A stretch of 39,208 nucleotides of DNA. Origin: an uncultured bacterium. Its GTDB lineage: Bacteria; Auribacterota; CAZIXI01. The notes under the pieces are model-generated. The model searched no databases, was not told where the DNA came from, and saw only the letters and a program-made list of their open reading frames with translations. The position numbers and the translations under genes were made by a program. Of this stretch, positions 18,022-32,296 are shown in pieces. Position 1 is the stretch's first letter, and each line of letters starts with the position of its first letter. The stretch is from positions 1 to 39,208 of the forward strand of contig CAZIXI010000003.1 of NCBI GenBank assembly GCA_964543115.1, read 5' to 3'.

Positions 18022-18903
18022 TTACGCCCGCGGATGGGCCTTGTCGTAAACCTTTTTTAACCTCTCCGGCGTAACATGAGTATAGATCTGGGTTGTGGAT
18101 ATACTCTTATGACCAAGTAATTCCTGCACAGAACGCAGATCCGCGCCGGCACTAAGCAGATGAGTGGCAAAAGTGTGCCGCAGGGTATGGGGAGATATCC
18201 GTTCCTGCAGGGCAACCTGCTTCATATATTTTTCTACTATCCGCTGGATCCCTCTAGTCGAGAGCCGCTGACCAAATCTATTGGCAAAAACCACCTTACC
18301 CTTAACACGGGGCTGTTCCTGGGACCGTTGCTCGAGATACTTTCTGATGGCCATTACCGCCGGCCGCCCCAAGGGCACCAGGCGCTCTTTTTTTCCCTTA
18401 CCTTTAGCCTTCAGCGCCTCGGCAATAAAATCAATATCATCAATACCGGCTCCGGCTAATTCACTGACCCGCAAACCTCCGCTATAGAGCACCTCCAGTA
18501 TCGCCCGGTCCCGCAAACCCTGCAGTGTATCCCGGCCGGGAGCCTCCAACAATTTCACGACCTTAGCCTTATCCAGAAAAACCGGCAATTTCTTTTCTCT
18601 TTTCGGTGCTGAAATCCCGGCAATCATATTTGTATCTACATACCCCTCCCGCTGCATGTACTTGTAAAAGCTCTTTAAGGAGGATAACTTCCTCGCCCGG
18701 CTGGCCCGGGAAAGATTCTGCTGCTGTAACTTGGCCAGGTAGGTCCTTATCTGTGCTACGGTAACATCGCCCAAATTTGTAATATTACGTCTTTCTAAAA
18801 AATCGGTAAAATGAAGAATATCCCTTTTATAATTGCTTAGTGTATGCCGTGAGGCATTCTTCTCCACCGTTAAATAATCAAGAAAATTTTTTAATTCCTT
18901 CAT
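18022..18903 (-). CDS. xerC: Tyrosine recombinase XerC
   Basis: RDRAILEVLYSGGLRVSEL, GKGKKER, HTLRHTFATHLL..GADLRSVQELLGH, TTQIYTH, YDKAHPRA; downstream of dprA-topA as is usual for xerC. Confidence 0.88.
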   Translation of the reverse strand: MKELKNFLDYLTVEKNASRHTLSNYKRDILHFTDFLERRNITNLGDVTVAQIRTYLAKLQQQNLSRASRARKLSSLKSFYKYMQREGYVDTNMIAGISAPKREKKLPVFLDKAKVVKLLEAPGRDTLQGLRDRAILEVLYSGGLRVSELAGAGIDDIDFIAEALKAKGKGKKERLVPLGRPAVMAIRKYLEQRSQEQPRVKGKVVFANRFGQRLSTRGIQRIVEKYMKQVALQERISPHTLRHTFATHLLSAGADLRSVQELLGHKSISTTQIYTHVTPERLKKVYDKAHPRA

Positions 18904-18919: not shown

Positions 18920-19071
18920 GCCCCAAGCACAGCGAGGGGGACAGGCTCCTACAACCAACGGGCCGGGCAGTCTATATCCATTCCAATAATAGCAGTCTAT
19001 ATACATTCATATAATAGCAGCCCCGCGAAGCGGGGCAGTCCCAGCTTTGCTGGGGCAGGCCCGGCCCCTAC
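18920..19071 (-). repeat. GTAG-type REP hairpin with four units stacked in its loop, plus a second degenerate GTAG element
   Basis: Arms GGGCCGGGC (18960-18968) and GCCCGGCCC (19059-19067), then CTAC (19068-19071); GCAG at 18967, 18992, 19017, 19035, 19055; second CTAC at 18949-18952 next to GGGGACAG. Confidence 0.8.
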
Positions 19072-22000
19072 TAATATTTCCCATTTACCCTGACAAACCA
19101 GCCCTTGGAATCCCATTTGTCTTCGTTGCGGAGGTCGTCGTCGTAGTCGGTAAAATTATAACCTACACCCAGACGGATATACCTGCCAATCTCGCGGTCC
19201 ACCTCCAGCAGCCAGCCATTTTTCTGATCTTCAATCTGCTTGTTGCGTAATGTCCGGTACTCCGCCGCCAAATCCCAGGCACGGGTAAGATGAAAATTCA
19301 CCCGCCCCAGATATAAATACGTGTCACTATGCGTCCAGCTGCGATACCCCACTTTTTCTTTCATGTCACGATAGGCAACCTTCCCCACCAATTGCAGCCA
19401 TTTCAGAACATCGAACACTCCCTCTATCGCGTATACATGCCTTCGCGATTCCGTTCTTTCTACAAAATCTATCTGACTATCAGGCGGCAGGTTAGTGAGA
19501 TAACTGTACTTACCCAAGATGTTCAACCGGTCCCAGTCGATCGGGCGCAAACTGAATCCGCTGCCAACTTCGTAAAATTCCGCTTCATTGCGCTTTGTGC
19601 TACGGTCCTCGGTCCAGCCCCAGTTACCTCTGCCGGTCACACTCAATCCTTCAGTTAACCGCCATAACAAATCATTTTCCGTTACCCACTGCCGCACATC
19701 GGTCGTACCCCGGTCATTACGCAGTTCCACCTTACTATAACCCTTAACGCCTCTGGTACCAAACCAGAACTCATCCGGGTTAAGGTAGGTTAGGGCCACA
19801 CTACCGGCATCGCGATTAATTACCTCGGGATCCCGCCGCCGTTCGAAGTTACTACGCTCATAGGTCAGGCCCAAAGCAAAGGTTTCGGATACTTTTTCTT
19901 CATAACCCAATACCGTTCCCCGCACCAGATTCTCCTGCCAACTGCTGTAATCCTCTTCCACATACACCCGACTATCCGCACTGAGTGAGGTTGATTGACC
20001 ATAGGTCGTGCGGGCATATTTACCCAGATGAATATGATTTCCCACTTCCAGATTGGCATAGACATCCGTACCTTCAGTCATTTTACTGGTCACTCCCAAC
20101 AAGGTACTATTACCCAGATTGCCTATGGTCTCCGCTACATTCAACCGCGTCTTTTCCCAGATAACCATATCCGCGCCCACCGTCCCTTGATTATTCGTTC
20201 GGCCCTGCAATGTTGCCTGTCCCCGGACATAGGGATGAAACCACTTAAACAGCTGATAACCCACCCGGGCCGCCACAAAATCATTATCCTTTAACGGTAA
20301 CATGCCAAAATACGTATAATCCGTCTGCGGATGCTTTACCGTCTGATGCTGATATTCCCCGCGCAGGTCCCATTTCCCCCGCCGGTAATCGGCGATCCCC
20401 GTTGTTACATGCACATCCCGGGCACCCAATTCAGTCAGCGGAGTGGATTGCTTCTTTATCCTGGAGGTGACATGATTAAAACCCAGGGCCAGATACTGGG
20501 TAAGGCGGCTGTACACCATCCCCACTATCTTTTCTGTACCCTGCTGGCTGATACTATTCGTAATGGAAAAATACGGATCATAATTGCTGTAGGAAAGATA
20601 AACATCGGTATTCTTAAACAGCTTGGTCCGGCCGTTAACACTGTACCCCTCACCGGTTTTACCGTTACTGAATGTCTCCTGCTGGTCACTGAAATTAAGG
20701 CCGCCATCATAACTGGTACTGCTGCCCAGCTGTGTTTCCTTACTGTGGCCGTAAAAGGCATTTATCGAGGTATCCTCATTAATCTTTAAGGTGGCATCTC
20801 CGCTATAAACCTCATAGTTCGGGCCGTCTTTCTGCTCCTGCACATACGCCCCGCCAAGGCGCACATGATGCCCCAACTGCTGGCTTACCCGGCCGCCCCA
20901 GGTATTATCGCTTAATCCCTCACTCAAATACTCGTAATCCACTATCAAATACACGCGTTCTCCCATCAGTAAATCATTACTAATTATAGTACTATTATAG
21001 GCCTGCTGAACACTATTCAGCGGCTTTCTTAATAAAATCCGGCCGCTGTCATAATCTACCTCATAATCCTTCTCTTCGGCCAGCGGAATACTGCTTAAGG
21101 TGGCCTTACTCACCCGGTCCCGCACCTCTATGCGCAGCTTTTCACTACCCTCGATCACATCCTGGTGCCGCAGGTAATAGAGACTGCCGCCGGTACCCAC
21201 AAACTCATCATGGGCGGCCTTCTGCCGGCTAGCCGCGCCAAAACCCTTTACCATCGTCCAGGGATCACCAAATTTTGTCTCTCCCACACTAACATAATTT
21301 ACTATCCCGCCGCTCAAGGTGCGTTCATAAATATTAAAGGGCATTTCCGTATTAAAACTGCCCCACTTGGCAAAACTCTCGTCCCATTCGATTAACACAA
21401 ACGCCACATCCTGCGTATCCACTCCCTCATAATTAACTGTGGAGGCATCACCATAAACCGGATAATATTTATCCGGATCAAGGTTAGTAAACAGGTCCTT
21501 GGTGCGATACCGGCCGCCAGGCAGACGTTCCGTATCTACACAGGCCTTAACCAGATACTTACCTAAGACCTTTCCTTTTAAATAAAACGCCAATCTCCCA
21601 TCTACCCGCACCCCGTCATCGTAACGGTCATCCTTATCCATCATCTTAATGTTGCCGCTGGTATTGAGATTACTTACGGTTCCTTCGCCTAACGCTACAA
21701 TAAAGAACTTATCTAATATATTCTTGACCCCCGAGGGCTGCTCGCCTTTGACCATTTCTTCGTCAATTGCTTTTTCCTGCGATACACCAAAGTTTACCTT
21801 TGCCAACAATCCCTGCGTAACCTTCACAAAATACGGATTTTCTGTTGTAAATGTAGCCCCCTCCGGCAAGGTATTCGGATCCACTTTTAAAAGATGATTT
21901 TCCGCTGGCACATCCGCTATATGGTACTTGCCATCTTCGTCAGTGGTTACACAAACACCATACTCGGTATATATCTTTACTCCCGCTATACCTTTTTCGT

Positions 22001-25000
22001 CGCTCGTCGCTCGTATCTCGTCGTTCGTATCTTGAATTCCATTATTATTGTAGTCCCAGAAAACTTTACCAATAATGGTTCCTCTGGTAAACAAGGGGTC
22101 TGCCGTAACTTCTATGCTGGCGCTGTCAATGTTACTGTTGCGGCTGAGGGTGGTACTGTTACGCGTGTGTGCCGCTGCCTTGTAACGGCCCGGGGGAATA
22201 GCGGTGCCCACCCGGAACTGGTAACTGATATTTACCGTGGTGCGTTTAGCTATGTTACCGATATTAAATACTGCCTGGCGGCCGCTAACAACCGGATCAG
22301 CTACTTTTGCGCTTCCCCGGTAGCTGCTGCCGCTGACATATTTAAACCCATTCACCACTTCATCTGCCAGTTCCACATTACCCACCGGCTCGTACCAGTG
22401 TTTATTCTCAATTTTTACATTGTAGGTAACTATCTCCCCATTCTGTACCCGTTTTTTATTAACGGTCTTAGTTACCACCAGCCAGCCGCCCGGGTCCATA
22501 GGGATATTAATGGTCAGCGGATCACTGGCCGCCGGGAAATTCTCACCATGATCACCGAGCACCACTCCACTCACCATTTGAGAGGGAAAACCATATCCGC
22601 TCTTGGCAACAGAGATATGATAATTCCCCGGCTCCACATTAAAGGTATAGGGATTACTGGTGGTGGTGGAAAGCGCCGCAGAAGAGTCTTTGCGGTAAAT
22701 GGCCACCGTGGGCCGGCTGATCAGCTCACCGGTTACCGAGTCATATACCCGGCCGGTAATCGGCGGGTCACCTACTACGGTTTCAAAACAACCAATATCG
22801 TAATCCGTTCCCTGTGGGCGGGCCGTGCCTTGAATATCATCAGTAACTCCTTCAACTGCTAAATTTTCTCCGGCATCCACACAGGGAGAACCGGGATTGG
22901 TAGGCCGAAAGTCTTCTGCGGGTTCATCTTTAAACTGCGGGTCAGCATCGGTGTTGGTTGCACTGCCGGCATCGCCCGAATCCCAGCCCCAGGTAACCAG
23001 ATCATCAACACCGGTTGACTGAGTAGCCACATCAAATGCTAGAGCATCGCCATTATCACTATATAATAAACAATGTTCAACACTGGGATTGGCAGTGGCA
23101 TCTAGGGTTACCAGCACAAAACCATTATCGTTATTAAAAAGGCAGTTCCGGATTGTCGGTGAAGAGTTGAGACCCATAACAACTTCGTTATCCTGATTGG
23201 AACCAGATGTATTATTGCTAAACGTACACTGATAGATGTTTGGCGAAGATGTAGTGAGCCAAACCGCCCCTCCGTCTCCCCCGGAGCTATTACCATAAAA
23301 AAGACAATTGATCAGATGCACGGTACTGTTCGTTTCACTAACCGCACCTCCAGTCTGGGTTGCCTGGTTATTATTAAACGTACATTTTGAAATAGTACCG
23401 GTACTGCCAGCTATTTCAACGGCGCCTGATACCCCATCAGTAGCAGAATTATTTGAAAATGTCGCACCCATTAGAGTAATCGTAGAAGCACTACTTTCTA
23501 CTGCCGCCATAGAAGGAGCGGTGTTTTGGCTAAACGTAAAGGTACCATTACTAAAACTGAGCGTACTGCCATCACTAACAGCCACGCCCCCGGCTTCTTG
23601 CGTGGCTGAATTACTACTAAAAGTGGTACTGGAATTAGTATAGGTAGTGGAATTGTATATATAAGTATCAGTCAATGTCGAAGACTCCGAAATTACGAAA
23701 GCACCGCCAATAACAGCGGAATTATTAGATAATGTACAATCAACAATCGCGATTGTGCTGGAATCATAGCCGTGCAAAAAACCGCCAGCAACTGTTGACT
23801 GGTTATTGGACATTATACAGCTGTCGAAACTCACCGTTGAATTGCCGACTTTAAATGCCCCGCCATCATCATCAATATTATAGCCATTCTGAAATCCCAG
23901 CTGGGAGAAAATTGCTGTATGTGTGGAATTTCCTATATCAAAAAGAACACTAGTATTTCCCCCATCAATAATCGTACTACTGGCCCCTTCACCGATAAAG
24001 CGCACCGTCGGGCCACCACTAACCATAATAGGGAAATTCTCCCCGGAGGCGGCATTAAAGGTGCCCATTAGATAAACATCAATATTGCCGCTTCTACTGG
24101 CCAACTGACTGACCGCGTAACCGATGGTGCCCCAGGCTTCCGCCCAGGTAGTCCCGTTATTGCTATCACTGCCGGTACCGGCCCATACATAGTAGGTATT
24201 GGGCGTTGCCCCGACAGAAATAGCAACTGTGGCCGTATCACTAAGGCCGTCATTATCCACCACCGTTAATGTAGCAGTATATGTTCCTTCGGTATTATAT
24301 GTATAAGAAGCGCTGGCCCCGGTACCGGTATTACTATCACCATAATCCCAACTATAGGAACTAATGGTTCCATCTGAATCAGTGCTTCCGGAACCGTCAA
24401 AAGTTACAGTTAACGGTGCCGGACCGCTGGTGGGACTGGCGGAAATAGAGGCCGTGGGCCCGCTAGGTGTTGGTGTTGGATCAGGCGGCGGTTCCGGCTG
24501 CGGCGGCGGGGCGGGCTGTTCCTCCTCCTCTGCCAATTCCACCTCTTCTAATACCGGACCTTCTCCTTCACCCACAATCTCTTCATCATGCACTTCACCA
24601 GTATCATTATTTGTATCGGGAATGGGCAAAATAATCGGATCTATGCCTTCAACAGGAGAAACACCTCCGTCACCTTCTTCAAGCGGAGAAATGTATTCTT
24701 CATCTTCCTCAACAACTACCACTTCTTCTTCCTCAATCGTTGATTCTTCCTCTTCCCCCGGCTCAGCTTCTTCTTCACCTGGTTCTGCCTCATCTTCTTC
24801 CCCCGGTTCCGCTTCATCTTCTTCCCCAGGCTCCGCTTCATCTTCCTCCCCTGGTTCGGCTTCGTCTTCCTCACCCGGCTCTGCTTCGTCCTCCTCGCCC
24901 GGTTCCGCCTCGTCTTCCTCACCCGGCTCTGCTTCGTCTTCCTCCCCCGGTTCCGCCTCTTCTTCCTCCCCCGGCTCTGCTTCGTCCTCCTCGCCCGGTT

Positions 25001-25640
25001 CCGCCTCTTCCTCCTCACCCGGCTCGCCTTCTTTTTCTTCCTCTTCTTCTCCCGGCGCCACCTCCTCTTCTTCCTCATCCACTGGCGGCAGATCCTCTAT
25101 TTCAATCCCTTCTTCTTCTAAAACTTCCTCATTTGTCTCTTCTTCGATCTTCTCTTCTGTTTCCTGTTCTTCCTTTTCCTTATCTTCCCTTACCTCTTCC
25201 GCCTCTTCCTCTAATTCCCGCTTTTCCTTAACAACTATCTTGGCAACCTTGCCCTTAAGGTACTCCTCTCCCCCGGTTACCGTCCGACCCACACTCAGCA
25301 CATCCCAGGCTGTCTGGTATTTGCGGCGATTATTCTTTATCAGCAATACCTTGGCCTGGGGCTGAAGCTGTTCCCAGATCTGGTAACGAAATTCATAAGG
25401 CAGGTAACAACTGATCCGCTTCTTCCTGGCTCGCACTTCCCCGGTATATTCATTTACCCGCTGCAGGAATATTCCCACTTCGATCTCCCCCCGGCGAACC
25501 TGCTCCCTCAATTCCTCAGGATAATCAAAACAGTAAACTTCCCCCTCCACAACTTTCACCAGGGTAGTTGTCTCGGCCGCACAAATAATTAACGGACAAA
25601 TGAAAAGTAAGACTAAGGATAGAAAAGTAGTTTTACGCAT
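19071..25640 (-). CDS. Giant secreted/outer-membrane protein: acidic repeat stalk, PKD, Pmp-like beta-helix, DUF11, SdrD-B-like and probable C-terminal beta-barrel
   Basis: Signal peptide; (EEDEAEPG)n; SASPTSGPAPLTVTFDGSGS.D.DG.I.SY.WDYGD (PKD); GGA[FV]/FxxN repeats; GSPCVDAG..DIGCFE; VTKTV...GEIVTY (DUF11); IGKVFWDYNNNG.QD; amphipathic C-terminal strands ending WFVRVNGKY. Confidence 0.75.
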   Translation of the reverse strand: MRKTTFLSLVLLFICPLIICAAETTTLVKVVEGEVYCFDYPEELREQVRRGEIEVGIFLQRVNEYTGEVRARKKRISCYLPYEFRYQIWEQLQPQAKVLLIKNNRRKYQTAWDVLSVGRTVTGGEEYLKGKVAKIVVKEKRELEEEAEEVREDKEKEEQETEEKIEEETNEEVLEEEGIEIEDLPPVDEEEEEVAPGEEEEEKEGEPGEEEEAEPGEEDEAEPGEEEEAEPGEEDEAEPGEEDEAEPGEEDEAEPGEEDEAEPGEEDEAEPGEEDEAEPGEEDEAEPGEEEAEPGEEEESTIEEEEVVVVEEDEEYISPLEEGDGGVSPVEGIDPIILPIPDTNNDTGEVHDEEIVGEGEGPVLEEVELAEEEEQPAPPPQPEPPPDPTPTPSGPTASISASPTSGPAPLTVTFDGSGSTDSDGTISSYSWDYGDSNTGTGASASYTYNTEGTYTATLTVVDNDGLSDTATVAISVGATPNTYYVWAGTGSDSNNGTTWAEAWGTIGYAVSQLASRSGNIDVYLMGTFNAASGENFPIMVSGGPTVRFIGEGASSTIIDGGNTSVLFDIGNSTHTAIFSQLGFQNGYNIDDDGGAFKVGNSTVSFDSCIMSNNQSTVAGGFLHGYDSSTIAIVDCTLSNNSAVIGGAFVISESSTLTDTYIYNSTTYTNSSTTFSSNSATQEAGGVAVSDGSTLSFSNGTFTFSQNTAPSMAAVESSASTITLMGATFSNNSATDGVSGAVEIAGSTGTISKCTFNNNQATQTGGAVSETNSTVHLINCLFYGNSSGGDGGAVWLTTSSPNIYQCTFSNNTSGSNQDNEVVMGLNSSPTIRNCLFNNDNGFVLVTLDATANPSVEHCLLYSDNGDALAFDVATQSTGVDDLVTWGWDSGDAGSATNTDADPQFKDEPAEDFRPTNPGSPCVDAGENLAVEGVTDDIQGTARPQGTDYDIGCFETVVGDPPITGRVYDSVTGELISRPTVAIYRKDSSAALSTTTSNPYTFNVEPGNYHISVAKSGYGFPSQMVSGVVLGDHGENFPAASDPLTINIPMDPGGWLVVTKTVNKKRVQNGEIVTYNVKIENKHWYEPVGNVELADEVVNGFKYVSGSSYRGSAKVADPVVSGRQAVFNIGNIAKRTTVNISYQFRVGTAIPPGRYKAAAHTRNSTTLSRNSNIDSASIEVTADPLFTRGTIIGKVFWDYNNNGIQDTNDEIRATSDEKGIAGVKIYTEYGVCVTTDEDGKYHIADVPAENHLLKVDPNTLPEGATFTTENPYFVKVTQGLLAKVNFGVSQEKAIDEEMVKGEQPSGVKNILDKFFIVALGEGTVSNLNTSGNIKMMDKDDRYDDGVRVDGRLAFYLKGKVLGKYLVKACVDTERLPGGRYRTKDLFTNLDPDKYYPVYGDASTVNYEGVDTQDVAFVLIEWDESFAKWGSFNTEMPFNIYERTLSGGIVNYVSVGETKFGDPWTMVKGFGAASRQKAAHDEFVGTGGSLYYLRHQDVIEGSEKLRIEVRDRVSKATLSSIPLAEEKDYEVDYDSGRILLRKPLNSVQQAYNSTIISNDLLMGERVYLIVDYEYLSEGLSDNTWGGRVSQQLGHHVRLGGAYVQEQKDGPNYEVYSGDATLKINEDTSINAFYGHSKETQLGSSTSYDGGLNFSDQQETFSNGKTGEGYSVNGRTKLFKNTDVYLSYSNYDPYFSITNSISQQGTEKIVGMVYSRLTQYLALGFNHVTSRIKKQSTPLTELGARDVHVTTGIADYRRGKWDLRGEYQHQTVKHPQTDYTYFGMLPLKDNDFVAARVGYQLFKWFHPYVRGQATLQGRTNNQGTVGADMVIWEKTRLNVAETIGNLGNSTLLGVTSKMTEGTDVYANLEVGNHIHLGKYARTTYGQSTSLSADSRVYVEEDYSSWQENLVRGTVLGYEEKVSETFALGLTYERSNFERRRDPEVINRDAGSVALTYLNPDEFWFGTRGVKGYSKVELRNDRGTTDVRQWVTENDLLWRLTEGLSVTGRGNWGWTEDRSTKRNEAEFYEVGSGFSLRPIDWDRLNILGKYSYLTNLPPDSQIDFVERTESRRHVYAIEGVFDVLKWLQLVGKVAYRDMKEKVGYRSWTHSDTYLYLGRVNFHLTRAWDLAAEYRTLRNKQIEDQKNGWLLEVDREIGRYIRLGVGYNFTDYDDDLRNEDKWDSKGWFVRVNGKY
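21997..22031. repeat. Five tandem heptamers within the giant gene
   Basis: TCGTCGC TCGTCGC TCGTATC TCGTCGT TCGTATC on the + strand. Confidence 0.75.
24756..25025 (-). repeat. 24-bp coding tandem repeat (EE[D/E]EAEPG x10 plus one 7-aa unit)
   Basis: First and last Pro codons are 261 bp apart = 10x24 + 21; synonymous codons vary between units. Confidence 0.92.
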
Positions 25641-28741: not shown

Positions 28742-29335
28742 TTATTTCCTGTTTTTTTTAGCACTAAACAATTCCAGTTGTCCACCCTTTAATATATCAT
28801 ACACCTTAAACAATCTGATCAGCTGCAGCGTATCAGATTCCAGATAATTCCTGTTTATTCTGACCATTTTTGTTAAGGATTTTAAGATCAGCTTAAATTC
28901 TATCACTCCATCAACACCCTTTTCCCTCAAAATATCAATACTGCGGGCCTTCATTTCCCGGTCAGCCGGTAAACAGGGGACAACGAGTATTCTGGCAAAA
29001 TCTTTTGTGCCAAAAAACTGGGCAGCCAGCTTGATTACTCCCGGCGAAATAAACCGGAATATTTTTGGTGATCCGGTCAGGACAGAAGGGCAAAAAGTTT
29101 CCGTGTGCCAGCCCTTGACCTTAACTATAGCCCGGGACAATTTATCGATGTCATCGGCACTGAGCACGAAAGACCTCAACCGATCAGGTTGAGGTTTCAG
29201 ATTAAGCACTGCCAAATCAGCTTCAGAAATTTTTTCCCGGTCCTTTTTTGTCGGAATATATTTGCGGTTTATCTTTACCAGAAACTGATGGGCCTCAAAA
29301 AACTCCCTTACTAATTCGATTCCAACATCAGCCAT
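28742..29335 (-). CDS. Hypothetical protein, possible PD-(D/E)xK-like fold, C-terminal QLELF
   Basis: 197-aa ORF with GGGAG upstream and tight operon spacing; LVREFFE..F.V, EADL, IVKVKGWH, QLELF. Confidence 0.65.
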   Translation of the reverse strand: MADVGIELVREFFEAHQFLVKINRKYIPTKKDREKISEADLAVLNLKPQPDRLRSFVLSADDIDKLSRAIVKVKGWHTETFCPSVLTGSPKIFRFISPGVIKLAAQFFGTKDFARILVVPCLPADREMKARSIDILREKGVDGVIEFKLILKSLTKMVRINRNYLESDTLQLIRLFKVYDILKGGQLELFSAKKNRK

Positions 29336-29362: not shown

Positions 29363-30505
29363 CTAAGAAATAATCTCTTTAAGGACCTCTCGCACATCCG
29401 CTTCCGGTACTTTGTCAGTAAGCTTTACTTTGCCGATCTTCTCGGCCAAAACAAACCTTAGCTTGCCGGCAACCGCTTTCTTATCATGCCGAAGCATGGC
29501 CAAAACTTTATCTTCTAGCCTGGCGTCCCGCCCCCGACACGTCGGGGACAGCCTTAGAGGAATGGCTATAGACTGACCGGCTGTCTCTAAGTGTACCGGT
29601 AAACCCAATGCCTTAAGCAAATCAATCTGACTATCCCGCGAAGCGCCATTAAGATAGCCTAATCGGCAGGCCAATTTTGCCGCCGCCGCCATACCGATAG
29701 CAACCGCTTCTCCATGAGTCAGTTCCTGATACTCGGTTAATGTCTCTAAGGCATGGCCGATTGTATGGCCATAATTAAGAATTGCCCGCAAACCGCTAAG
29801 CTCACGCTCATCCTTACTAACAACCTCAGCCTTAATCCGGGCACAGGTGGTAATTATATCCAGCCACAAATCTTTTTCAAGCTTAAATAATTTTTCCTGC
29901 TGTTCCGCCAGCATATTGAACAGGCGCCGGTCCCTGATCACACCATACTTAACCACCTCCGCCAATCCAGTACGTATCTCTTTCTGCGAAAGAGTACTAA
30001 GTGTTTGGACGTCGGTATAGACAAACCTGGGCTGCCAGAAACTACCCACGAGATTTTTACCCTGAGAAAGATTTACCCCTGTCTTACCGCCAATACTGCT
30101 ATCCACCTGGGCCATCAATGTTGTGGGTAACTGCAGATAATCAATTCCCCGCATATAGGTAGCGGCAATAAATCCAGTCAGATCGCCCACCACTCCTCCA
30201 CCGCAGGCAATGAGAAAACTTTTCCTGTCTAATCCCCAATCCACTAATTGCTGATAAATCTTATCCGCGGTACTCAGGGATTTCGATTCTTCCCCCGGCC
30301 GCACCGCATAAACCGGCAGATCATAACCCGCCCGGGCCAGCTCGTCTTTTAACTTGTTTACCCACAAACCATTAACCGTCTCATCGGTAATAATCCCGCC
30401 GCTCTTGCCTAACGGCTTCAGCAATTCCGCCAGACCGGCAAAAATATCATATCCTATATATATAGGATAGCTGCGCTCAGCCAAGGAAACAGATATTTTT
30501 TTCAT
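29363..30505 (-). CDS. aroB: 3-dehydroquinate synthase, with an in-frame insertion near the C-terminus
   Basis: GEESKS, GGGVVGDL.GF.AATYMRG, PTTLMAQVDSSIGGKTGVN, LNYGHTIGHALE, HGEAVAIGM, DKK. Confidence 0.96.
   Translation of the reverse strand: MKKISVSLAERSYPIYIGYDIFAGLAELLKPLGKSGGIITDETVNGLWVNKLKDELARAGYDLPVYAVRPGEESKSLSTADKIYQQLVDWGLDRKSFLIACGGGVVGDLTGFIAATYMRGIDYLQLPTTLMAQVDSSIGGKTGVNLSQGKNLVGSFWQPRFVYTDVQTLSTLSQKEIRTGLAEVVKYGVIRDRRLFNMLAEQQEKLFKLEKDLWLDIITTCARIKAEVVSKDERELSGLRAILNYGHTIGHALETLTEYQELTHGEAVAIGMAAAAKLACRLGYLNGASRDSQIDLLKALGLPVHLETAGQSIAIPLRLSPTCRGRDARLEDKVLAMLRHDKKAVAGKLRFVLAEKIGKVKLTDKVPEADVREVLKEIIS
29521..29583. repeat. Hairpin plus ~24-bp unit inserted in frame in aroB
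   Basis: CCCCGAC-AC-GTCGGGG (29532-29547) followed by GGAATGGCTATAGACTGACCGGC, which matches the minus strand of the xerC-upstream element at 21/23. Confidence 0.75.
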
Positions 30506-30566: not shown

Positions 30567-31079
30567 CTATTTGTTTCTTGATACTATCAGTGCCTTAATA
30601 TCTTCCACCACCTGTTGGATAGATTTCCCCGTAGTATCCACTTGCAGTTCAATCTTATCATAGAATGGTTTTCTAAAAGCCAGCAATTCCTTAATCTTAA
30701 GCAGAGGATCGGCAACCTTCAGTAAGGGCCGCTGCGTTTCCCGCGCTACCCGGCGATAGATTTCCTCAGGCGCTGCCTGCAAACAAATCAAAATCCCGCT
30801 TTCTCCCAGGGCCTGAATATTGTCTTCAGCTAAAACCACTCCCCCGCCGGCAGAAATAACCAGTCCCTGCCGGGCAGATAATTGCCTGGCCATTTCTTTC
30901 TCCAGCCTGCGAAAACAGGCCTCCCCGCGTGTGGCAAAGATATCATTAATCGTTATTTTTTCCTGATCTTCTATCAGGGCATCCATTTCCACGAATTCCC
31001 TGCCAAGGTCCTGCGCCAACCTCTGCGCTACGGCAGTTTTGCCCGTACCCATGAAGCCAAGAAGAACAATATTTTTCAC
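30567..31079 (-). CDS. aroK: Shikimate kinase
   Basis: NIVLLGFMGTGKT, D..IE, GE..FR.LE, GGGVV, RPLL; GTG start. Confidence 0.95.
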   Translation of the reverse strand: MKNIVLLGFMGTGKTAVAQRLAQDLGREFVEMDALIEDQEKITINDIFATRGEACFRRLEKEMARQLSARQGLVISAGGGVVLAEDNIQALGESGILICLQAAPEEIYRRVARETQRPLLKVADPLLKIKELLAFRKPFYDKIELQVDTTGKSIQQVVEDIKALIVSRNK

Positions 31080-31082
31080 TCC

Positions 31083-32201
31083 TTAACCCAATCCCTTTAC
31101 ATACTGCCGGTAGGCGGCTTTTGTGGCCCTAAGATTGTCGCCGCCGAATTTCTCCAGCATCGCCCGGCACAGTTCCACACCAACCATCGCCTCTCCGATT
31201 ACCGCCGCACTGGGAACGGCACAGACATCAGATCTTTCCCGAGCCGCCCGAACAGTTTTTTTATTTTTAATATCTACGGAAGCCAGCGGTTTACCCAGCG
31301 TGGCAATCGGTTTCATAACCGCCCGTAACATTATCGGTTCACCATTACTGATCCCGCCTTCAATCCCTCCACAGCGATCTGTCTTTCGATAAAAACCCAT
31401 CGGTTTTTTATAATAGATCGGATCATGAACCTTTGAACCGGGCAGACCCTGCATCCGAAACCCTAAACCAATCTCCACGCCCTTAATCGCCGGAATACTC
31501 ATCATCACCGCCGCCAACCGGGCATCCAAACGCTGGTCCCACTGCGCGTAACTACCCAGACCCGGCACAACACCGACCGCAATAACCTCAAAGGTTCCAC
31601 CCAGAGTATCTTTATCTTTTGCCGCCTTTTTAATCCGGGCAATCATTTTCTGTTCCGCTTTTTTGTTTACACACCTGACCAATGAACCTTCCGCACGAAT
31701 AAGAATATCCTGAATCTTCACACCTTCTGCTTCCGCCTTCACTCCGCCCAGCTCGACAACATGACTAAATATTCCTATCCCCAACTCTCTCAATAGTAAC
31801 CGGCAGACACTCCCGATGGCCACCCGGATCGCCGTTTCTCTGGCACTGGCCCGTTCTAACACACTGCGAATATCATCCAATCCGTATTTAAGCCAGCCCG
31901 CCAGATCCGCGTGTCCCGGCCGGGGAGCAGTCACCGCAGGCAGGGTATCAATTTTAAAATCCTTATTCTCAATATAGAGGGCCAAAGGACTGCCGATCGT
32001 TTGCCCCTTCCGGATCCCCGCTAAAATGCGCACTTTATCCTGTTCTATCTGCATCCGGGCCCCGCGGCCATAACCGGTCTGCCGCTGCTTTAATTGCCGA
32101 TTAATGAAATCAATATCTAATTTCAAGCCTGCCGGAATGCCTTCCAGAACCCCTACTAATCCGGCTCCATGAGACTCTCCTGCTGTAAACCAGCGAAACA
32201 T
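31083..32201 (-). CDS. aroC: Chorismate synthase
   Basis: MFRWFTAGESHG, PRPGHAD, ERASARETA, GGIEGGISNG, ERSDVCAVP. Start placed at ATG 32201 (GAGGAGG upstream); the ORF-track extension is translated repeat DNA. Confidence 0.96.
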   Translation of the reverse strand: MFRWFTAGESHGAGLVGVLEGIPAGLKLDIDFINRQLKQRQTGYGRGARMQIEQDKVRILAGIRKGQTIGSPLALYIENKDFKIDTLPAVTAPRPGHADLAGWLKYGLDDIRSVLERASARETAIRVAIGSVCRLLLRELGIGIFSHVVELGGVKAEAEGVKIQDILIRAEGSLVRCVNKKAEQKMIARIKKAAKDKDTLGGTFEVIAVGVVPGLGSYAQWDQRLDARLAAVMMSIPAIKGVEIGLGFRMQGLPGSKVHDPIYYKKPMGFYRKTDRCGGIEGGISNGEPIMLRAVMKPIATLGKPLASVDIKNKKTVRAARERSDVCAVPSAAVIGEAMVGVELCRAMLEKFGGDNLRATKAAYRQYVKGLG

Positions 32202-32217
32202 AAAATCCTCCTCTTCC

Positions 32218-32263
32218 AATTGCGGAATGCGGATTTCGGATTGCGGAATTAGGAATTCCGCAA
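32218..32263. repeat. GATTGCG-type heptamer array with inverted end
   Basis: AATTGCG GAATGCG GATTTCG GATTGCG GAATTAG; perfect 10-bp IR TTGCGGAATT-AGG-AATTCCGCAA (32241-32263). Confidence 0.8.
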
Positions 32264-32296
32264 AACTCAATCAATTAATAGAAATTCTAGTATCTT

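Follow-up and report, generated by a model that had tools for sequence, protein, structure and literature searches.

The stretch of DNA analysed here (contig CAZIXI010000003.1, 39,208 nucleotides (nt), hereafter the window) belongs to an uncultured marine bacterium of the phylum Auribacterota and is contig C3 of a 3.38-Mb assembly in 349 contigs (45.7% GC, 87% complete). It carries aroB, the gene for 3-dehydroquinate synthase (DHQS), and within this gene lies a 45-nt segment that is very probably one copy of a lineage-specific, non-autonomous mobile repeat inserted in a loop of AroB. The repeat is built of a non-palindromic head of 24-25 nt, referred to as A, followed by at least one GC-rich hairpin module, referred to as H. 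The H modules are hairpins of 15-21 nt preceded by a CAG leader and exist in several interchangeable types. Besides aroB, at least five other conserved genes were hit alike. The features of the aroB copy are the following:

29363-30505, minus strand: aroB, 3-dehydroquinate synthase, 380 residues, intact open reading frame (ORF) with the insert at residues ~310-325
29531-29575, minus strand: inserted A+H repeat unit, 45 nt or 15 codons, in frame in aroB
29552-29575, minus strand: module A, the head, 24 nt, CAGTCTATAnCCATTCC..., in which CAGTCTATAGCCATTCC matches the family core exactly and is followed by TCTAAGG
29531-29551, minus strand: module H, 21 nt, with the leader CTG (CAG in most copies) and a GC hairpin of 8-bp stem and 4-nt loop

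The gene product is identified as AroB by its Pfam domains (DHQ_synthase, 7e-47; DHQS_C, 5e-44) and by its match to a DHQS in the PDB (6e-76). The first-pass annotation had placed the unit on the minus strand at 29583-29521, in frame inside aroB, and re-reading of the sequence agrees with this: the ORF at 29363-30505 reads straight through the unit, in translation as ...AGQSIAIPLRLSPTCRGRD.... The H module folds as DNA at -9.4 kcal/mol (z = -2.1) and its hairpin type is also present at other loci. Both CAG leaders of this copy have mutated, to CTG inside the unit and to CGG at its 3' edge, which indicates that the copy is not brand new. The register of the unit is ambiguous by 3 nt, positions 29528-29572 being equally possible, because the closest homologue (P0002) has a glutamine at the left junction while the unit starts with CAG and is then followed by CGG.

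The inserted segment is absent from AroB of related organisms. In an alignment, a block of 20 columns at the insert is missing from all 19 orthologues of the phylum. A homologue search over 5.8 billion proteins gave the same picture for the nine closest database sequences: P0002 (83% identical, 365 residues) lacks exactly 15 residues at the insert and the next eight are aligned without 15-20 residues. The two PDB alignments viewed, to the solved DHQS structures 3okf and 6lk2, are also gapped at this position. The 15 missing residues correspond to 45 nt, the exact length of the A+H unit. P0002, P0003 and P0006 have five residues more at this loop than the other homologues, and the AroB loop is therefore naturally variable in length. 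The proposal that a peptide has been added to AroB is thus borne out by the orthologues of the phylum, the closest homologues and the solved structures alike; its extent, however, is not the whole 19-residue string first quoted but 15 residues relative to the nearest homologue and about 20 relative to distant orthologues. The observations that had been named in advance as speaking against the proposal were not made, since the orthologues do not share an equally long loop and copies of the unit are found beyond the first two.

The loop modelling suggested at the outset was carried out with AlphaFold2 on an alignment of 66 AroB sequences. Across these sequences 67 columns are invariant, including the motifs G-G-G-V-x-G-D, K-N, H-x-x-x-H and D-K-K. 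The model has a mean predicted local distance difference test score (pLDDT) of 91.5 and a predicted template modelling score of 0.90. Its only weak stretch is formed by residues ~311-330, with means of 51 for block 311-320 and 60 for block 321-330; this stretch, which holds the insert, is modelled as a low-confidence coil between the helices 287-299 and 330-339. When compared by Foldseek with the solved DHQS 6lla, the model gave a TM score of 0.86 normalised to the query and 0.92 normalised to the target. The predicted structure shows the AroB fold intact around the insert, and the 15 extra residues probably form a disordered surface loop according to the same model.

An alternative is an assembly artefact, the repeat having been threaded wrongly into aroB as the metagenome bin was put together. 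The family does break the assembly elsewhere, with runs of N inside tandem A/H arrays at C159:6270-6385, C145:2050-2090 and C79:4480-4590, so that true copy numbers and array lengths are underestimated. Moreover, among the sequencing data (eight DNA data sets from two studies, no RNA run being listed), the Logan contigs of runs X1 and X2 end inside the unit at 29560. Against an artefact, run X4 has a 151-nt Logan contig that covers 29462-29612 without a single difference and includes the whole unit, flanked by 69 and 37 nt of unique aroB sequence, and none of the Logan contigs aligned to the window skips the insert. The two joints at which contigs go back, from 29579/29582 to 29545, seem to reflect tandem forms or further copies of the repeat that were aligned here, and they are not read as aroB variants. 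In addition, the unit is stop-free and exactly in frame, which a false join would produce only by luck, and five other genes show a like pattern. An artefact is therefore considered extremely unlikely.

The aroB unit had been noticed through its similarity to a pair of units some distance away in the window. When up to 3 mismatches are allowed, the 17-mer CAGTCTATAKCCATTCC is found three times in the window (18968, 18993 and 29559), where ~0.10 occurrences are expected and where none of 100 shuffles reached three. On the plus strand from 18962, a related unit pair is followed by CCCCGCGAAGCGGGG, and the 23-nt comparison of the two loci is identical at 21 of 23 positions, as first reported. The relationship of the two loci is sustained, but they are not the same unit: the aroB copy is a single head with its hairpin, whereas the copy at 18968 has two heads and two hairpins and sits in the loop of a repetitive extragenic palindrome (REP). 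This second locus is composed as follows:

18968-19055, plus strand: AAHH array, 88 nt, with A at 18968-18992, A at 18993-19017, H at 19018-19035 and H at 19036-19055
18960-19071, plus strand: host REP-type hairpin with the AAHH array in its loop, left arm GGGCCGGG at 18960-18967 and right part CAGG + CCCGGCCC + CTAC at 19056-19071

The single-stranded DNA fold of 18957-19074 has an energy of -27.4 kcal/mol (z = -4.7), a value that none of 200 shuffles equalled. The right arm of the REP and its CTAC tag run into the stop codon (19071-19073, TAG on the minus strand) of a 2189-codon ORF at 19071-25640, so that the REP with its insert begins exactly at the end of this giant ORF (window positions 19056-19073). 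Downstream of the intergenic repeat lies a gene for a tyrosine recombinase, which is regarded as a neighbour only:

18022-18903, minus strand: XerC/XerD-type tyrosine recombinase, Phage_integrase domain (1e-47) and SAM-like domain

Genome-wide, the head motif with at most one mismatch has 125 copies (64 forward, 61 reverse), as opposed to none for a control motif read backwards. The unit is thus dispersed, as had been surmised, and is not a product of local slippage. A looser version of the head core gives 155 matches in the genome and 4 for the reversed control. An information profile was made from 130 copies anchored on the head. Conservation is lacking upstream of about -3, the 5' edge at CAG is sharp, and the block that follows reads CAGTCTATA-n-CCATTCC-nn-TAA-nn-G, with CAG and the beginning of a C-rich stem after it. 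The 106 arrays that were parsed are distributed as AH (64), AAHH (9), AHAH (7), AHH (7), AAH (4) and other forms (15, one of them with five A+H units). The commonest form is therefore the single A+H unit, 41-50 nt in length. All modules within arrays are in direct orientation, with no inverted dimers, and the array leader is CAG in 90 of 94 arrays. The parser still mis-parses some arrays, such as the copy in the pseudouridine synthase gene discussed below, and a permissive hairpin count (575 matches, 184 for the control) was used solely for counts of exact strings.

The distribution of the family appears narrow. None of 78 other genomes of the phylum, the nearest kin among them being related only at the phylum level, contains the head motif, which leaves the window genome as the sole match among 79. 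A pattern of 24 fixed bases had no match in a metagenome collection from which the own genome or very near ones may be excluded, which indicates no more than that the family is not common there. A scan over all species with 16 fixed bases found at least 74 records from unrelated taxa with one match each; since a few hundred chance matches are estimated in the 596 Gb searched, it is uninformative on distribution. Rfam at the gathering level returned no match on the window.

The position of the arrays relative to genes was evaluated with crude gene calls. Arrays in tandem spacers lie with the genes in 26 cases and against them in 27, and 16 and 12 arrays are found in divergent and convergent spacers, respectively. 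There is neither an orientation bias nor a 3'-end bias, which speaks against a terminator or a promoter role, and both roles were dropped. As side observations, an AHAH array at C4:9687-9850 (locus L037, 1431-1600) starts at the very 3' end of a tRNA-Gln gene, the ARAGORN call for this gene ending 5 nt into the first CAGTC of the array, and arrays on C116, C8 and C330 seem to abut putative tRNA-like 3' ends.

Copies of the unit also lie in frame inside other genes. A screen for stop-free frames no shorter than 150 codons, in which the head has 40 or more codons on either side, found 18 head copies (at most one mismatch) within 15 ORFs. Besides aroB, alignment with orthologues established the insertion in five genes:

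MnmE: 14 extra residues, absent in 7/7 orthologues
5-formyl-tetrahydrofolate (THF) cyclo-ligase: 14 extra residues, absent in 7/7 orthologues
UPF0047 protein: 15 extra residues, absent in 7/7 orthologues
GT9 glycosyltransferase: about 27 extra residues, absent in 5/5 orthologues
pseudouridine synthase: about 30 extra residues, absent in 6/6 orthologues

When ten ORFs other than aroB were compared with Pfam, eight matched families and two (on C207 and C135) did not. A Pfam domain spans the element in the 5-formyl-THF cyclo-ligase, the UPF0047 protein, the GT9 glycosyltransferase, the pseudouridine synthase, MnmE and a metallophosphoesterase. The insertion in the metallophosphoesterase is unconfirmed by alignment, as only one distant homologue was found among 16 relatives. 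The two Pfam domains of a B12-radical SAM protein flank the element. The element falls outside the matched Pfam domains in a TPR protein (C324), where the insertion is unconfirmed, as it is in the candidate ORFs on C207 and C135 and in the one on C79, which is cut by N. Separately, among giant open frames, in-frame A/H units occur in those of C44 (5657 codons) and C145 (2788 codons, three units), and one antisense unit occurs in that of C74 (2112 codons).

The lengths of the units in the confirmed or Pfam-supported genes are 42, 42, 45, 45, 48, 90 and 96 nt, all multiples of three, and the copy in the pseudouridine synthase gene, which the parser cut short, is 93 nt by manual count. Among arrays outside long ORFs, 29 of 80 lengths are multiples of three. 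Three reading frames of the unit are used in different genes, with the translations QSIxIP, VYxHS and SLYPF, which argues against a common peptide being selected. This bears on an alternative in which the 15 residues were selected because they give AroB a new function, for instance as an interaction or regulatory loop, and the repeat DNA was only the raw material. Such a role would agree with an intact ORF in a copy that is not brand new, judging from its mutated CAG leaders, and with the place of the loop, ~10 residues ahead of the helix leading into the invariant D-K-K motif. The unit is nevertheless found in at least five unrelated enzymes without any common peptide, the loop is predicted as a low-confidence coil, and the closest relative, to judge from its sequence, works with a loop that is 15 residues shorter. 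A functional addition is accordingly held to be very unlikely.

Sites with and without the unit can be compared within the genome. The GTAG-tagged REP GTAGGGGCCGGGCAGGCCCGGCCCCTAC is uninterrupted on seven contigs (C6, C11, C39, C84, C217, C262 and C307). The same REP contains A/H units between GGGCCGGG and CAGGCCC in the window copy and on C5, C39, C98 and C273. As empty and filled REP copies both exist, the window locus at 18960-19071 can be read as a REP hairpin with an insert of 88 nt in its loop. A hairpin module with six intact copies elsewhere is split by an A+H unit on C27. Finally, at several loci units lie within short tandem arrays of ACGCAGAG-like and GTGACAGA-like repeats, at an equal relative place. 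These three kinds of paralogous empty and filled pairs indicate that the A/H units are mobile. The 8-mers flanking the units at a constant relative position are GTGACAGA/GTGACAAA-like and ACGCAGAG-like. The loci concerned are the following:

short tandem repeats of these types flanking A/H units: C110:4460-4560, C219, C19 and C259; and C10, C105, C89, C235 and C79

Either the short tandem repeats are preferred targets or the composite has itself spread.

The course of events that would best account for the aroB locus can be outlined as follows. One 45-nt unit would have entered the C-terminal domain of 3-dehydroquinate synthase, at a loop of variable length that lies between two helices. Because the length of the unit is a multiple of three and the frame used is free of stops, aroB stayed open and its product gained 15 residues. 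Copies that broke genes would have been lost, and those left in genes would represent the tolerated fraction. The element may be moved in trans by an enzyme that acts on single-stranded hairpin DNA, with the IS200/IS605-RAYT kind favoured (RAYT, REP-associated tyrosine transposase). A single-strand mechanism is favoured because the insertions sit in hairpin loops. That the mover of the A/H units is an HUH/Y1-type transposase is a guess, and it falls somewhat short of an even chance.

Several points weigh against this interpretation of a mobile repeat carried as a passenger. No enzyme is linked to the A/H family in the window genome, where Y1, IS110, TnpB, DDE and GIY-YIG were checked. The family lies beside neither of two Y1_Tnp genes (the flanks on C161 were read, those on C140 only for ~150 nt on each side), no IS110 or TnpB homologue was found in the 87% of the genome that is assembled, and the inverted repeats or ends at two DDE_Tnp_1 loci are unrelated to A/H. 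The closest homologue of AroB, P0002, is known as a protein only, so that the empty site of aroB is seen at the protein level. In 17 of 94 arrays the leader is identical to the 3' trinucleotide, while shuffled pairing gives 15.5 on average and attains 17 in 185 of 2000 shuffles. Finally, that the 15-residue peptide is a neutral passenger and not a functional addition is something we infer.

The search for an enzyme yielded further details. Within 500 nt of the two small GIY-YIG genes, A/H modules are absent. The Y1 gene on C161 is bounded by a unique inverted repeat, whereas the Y1 gene on C140 is flanked by a GTAG REP that differs from the A/H modules. At the latter locus (C140:4100-5100, locus L122), the Y1/HUH transposase homologue (Pfam Y1_Tnp, 40 bits) has this REP on both sides. 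The REP reads CATGTAGGAGGTC(A/T)GACCTCCTACATG and recurs at about 15 loci, often paired. The Y1 gene of C140 and its GTAG REP form a REP-RAYT-like system that is separate from the A/H family. The gene for the mobilising enzyme of the A/H units may simply be missing, as the assembly is only 87% complete.

The junctions of the units raise the question of a classical MITE (miniature transposable element with inverted repeats), that is, a deletion derivative of a DDE insertion sequence (IS) moving by cut-and-paste or copy-and-paste and duplicating a 3-bp CAG-like target. The mosaic arrays would then arise as new units keep landing in the edge CAG of older ones. CAG indeed bounds every module, and it is found at the 3' flank of 16 of 94 arrays, far above background, with G+CAG after 10 more and CAA after 8. 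Filled REP loops read CAG-unit-CAG, while the empty form has one CAG. Six arrays have a variant leader, and by eye three of them (CGG, CAA, CGG) repeat it directly after the array. On the other hand, the unit lacks terminal inverted repeats, since TCTATA... at the 5' end is not complementary to ...GGGR at the 3' end. Most arrays lack a CAG-like 3' trinucleotide and the agreement of leader and flank is no better than in the shuffled sets mentioned above. The GTGACAAAG arrays hold the unit between AAAG and TGACAG without duplication. Nor was a parent IS with matching ends found, with two unrelated DDE genes in an assembly of the stated completeness. A MITE is thus regarded as an unlikely identity for the element.

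Another reading considers the A/H units as a distinct class of ultra-short modular mobile DNA, whose mover would be none of the known REP, MITE or Ssn partners. CAG-bounded modules of ~20-25 nt would insert singly into single-stranded hairpin loops, of REPs or of earlier modules, and into genes, and mosaics would be built by modules landing side by side. If true, the units would steadily supply short peptide insertions to the proteome of a marine phylum about which little is known. A distinct class in this sense is thought to be improbable. The non-autonomous mobile repeat described above, moved in trans, is the reading retained for the aroB segment.

Two genes of the shikimate pathway lie just upstream of aroB on the same strand:

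30567-31079, minus strand: aroK, shikimate kinase, Pfam SKI (6.5e-43)
31083-32270, minus strand: aroC, chorismate synthase, Pfam Chorismate_synt (1.8e-114)

Directly downstream of aroB, a 197-codon ORF on the minus strand (28742-29335) matches no Pfam family at E <= 1e-5.

These results bear on several questions. Selfish DNA translated inside proteins is not an oddity of Rickettsia, and here at least six conserved genes, among them several with core housekeeping functions, have taken up a unit of 42-48 nt. For annotation, such inserts lengthen orthologues and are misreadable as new domains or as errors. They also point to loops in which about 15 extra residues are tolerated, information of use in protein engineering, and constitute a natural experiment on the entry of new loop sequence into proteins. 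Given an enzyme candidate, the chemistry of insertion could be tested on the clean pairs of empty and filled hairpin loops.

Repeats within genes have been described in other bacteria. The Rickettsia palindromic elements (RPEs) are dispersed palindromic repeats of about 100-150 bp that each encode a conserved peptide (Ogata et al. 2000, 2002, as cited in portions of PMC10969869 and PMC3184786), and intragenic ERIC and BRE repeats are likewise established, according to the same portions. Like the RPEs there described, the A/H family is a gene-less dispersed repeat that is found between genes and in frame in unrelated housekeeping genes, six of which were aligned here. Both add a peptide without breaking the protein, the RPEs being thought, in those same texts, to be tolerated in loops. 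In contrast with the published description of RPEs, on which this comparison is based, the A/H unit measures 41-50 nt, consists of a non-palindromic head and a short hairpin, is translated in three frames and occurs in another phylum.

Inside known genes of Opitutus terrae and R. conorii, REPs with GTAG or CGTC tags also occur and encode 20-30 residues (Di Nocera et al. 2013, PMC3733652). The H modules resemble REPs (GC-rich palindromes of 20-40 bp) and REPINs in being short GC-rich hairpins of high copy number, lineage-specific and sometimes mosaic, although head A is not a palindrome. By the tag criterion given there, the A/H units differ from REPs, as they carry a CAG leader and no GTAG or CGTC tag. 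The window genome does contain true GTAG REPs and a Y1 gene flanked by one, as in REP systems. Unlike REPIN-RAYT systems, the family has no inverted dimers and no A/H modules in the flanks read of either Y1 gene. The most conserved part of A/H is, unlike in REPs, an invariant non-palindromic head. The bacterial interspersed mosaic elements (BIMEs) of enterobacteria are mosaics of REPs and spacer motifs, in which hairpins alternate in orientation. The A/H arrays are comparable to BIMEs as modular and often tandem mosaics of hairpin units and non-hairpin motifs, but all their units have one orientation and the single A+H is dominant (64 of 106 arrays).

BIMEs are mentioned in PMC11893778, which also deals with hairpin repeats (NTS, dRS3 and SRM) that are cleaved by single-strand nucleases of the Ssn GIY-YIG type. 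Some H modules (the TCCCGCGAAGCGGGA type) have a stem and loop that resemble the NTS hairpin core as presented there. The degenerate SRM pattern published there matches none of the 106 A/H arrays. Genome-wide it matches 56 places, none of them in A/H arrays, compared with 18 for the reversed control, and a separate SRM-like hairpin family may exist in this genome. Set against these systems, the A/H family is new and differently built, while the phenomenon that it illustrates, repeats lying in frame within genes, is already known.

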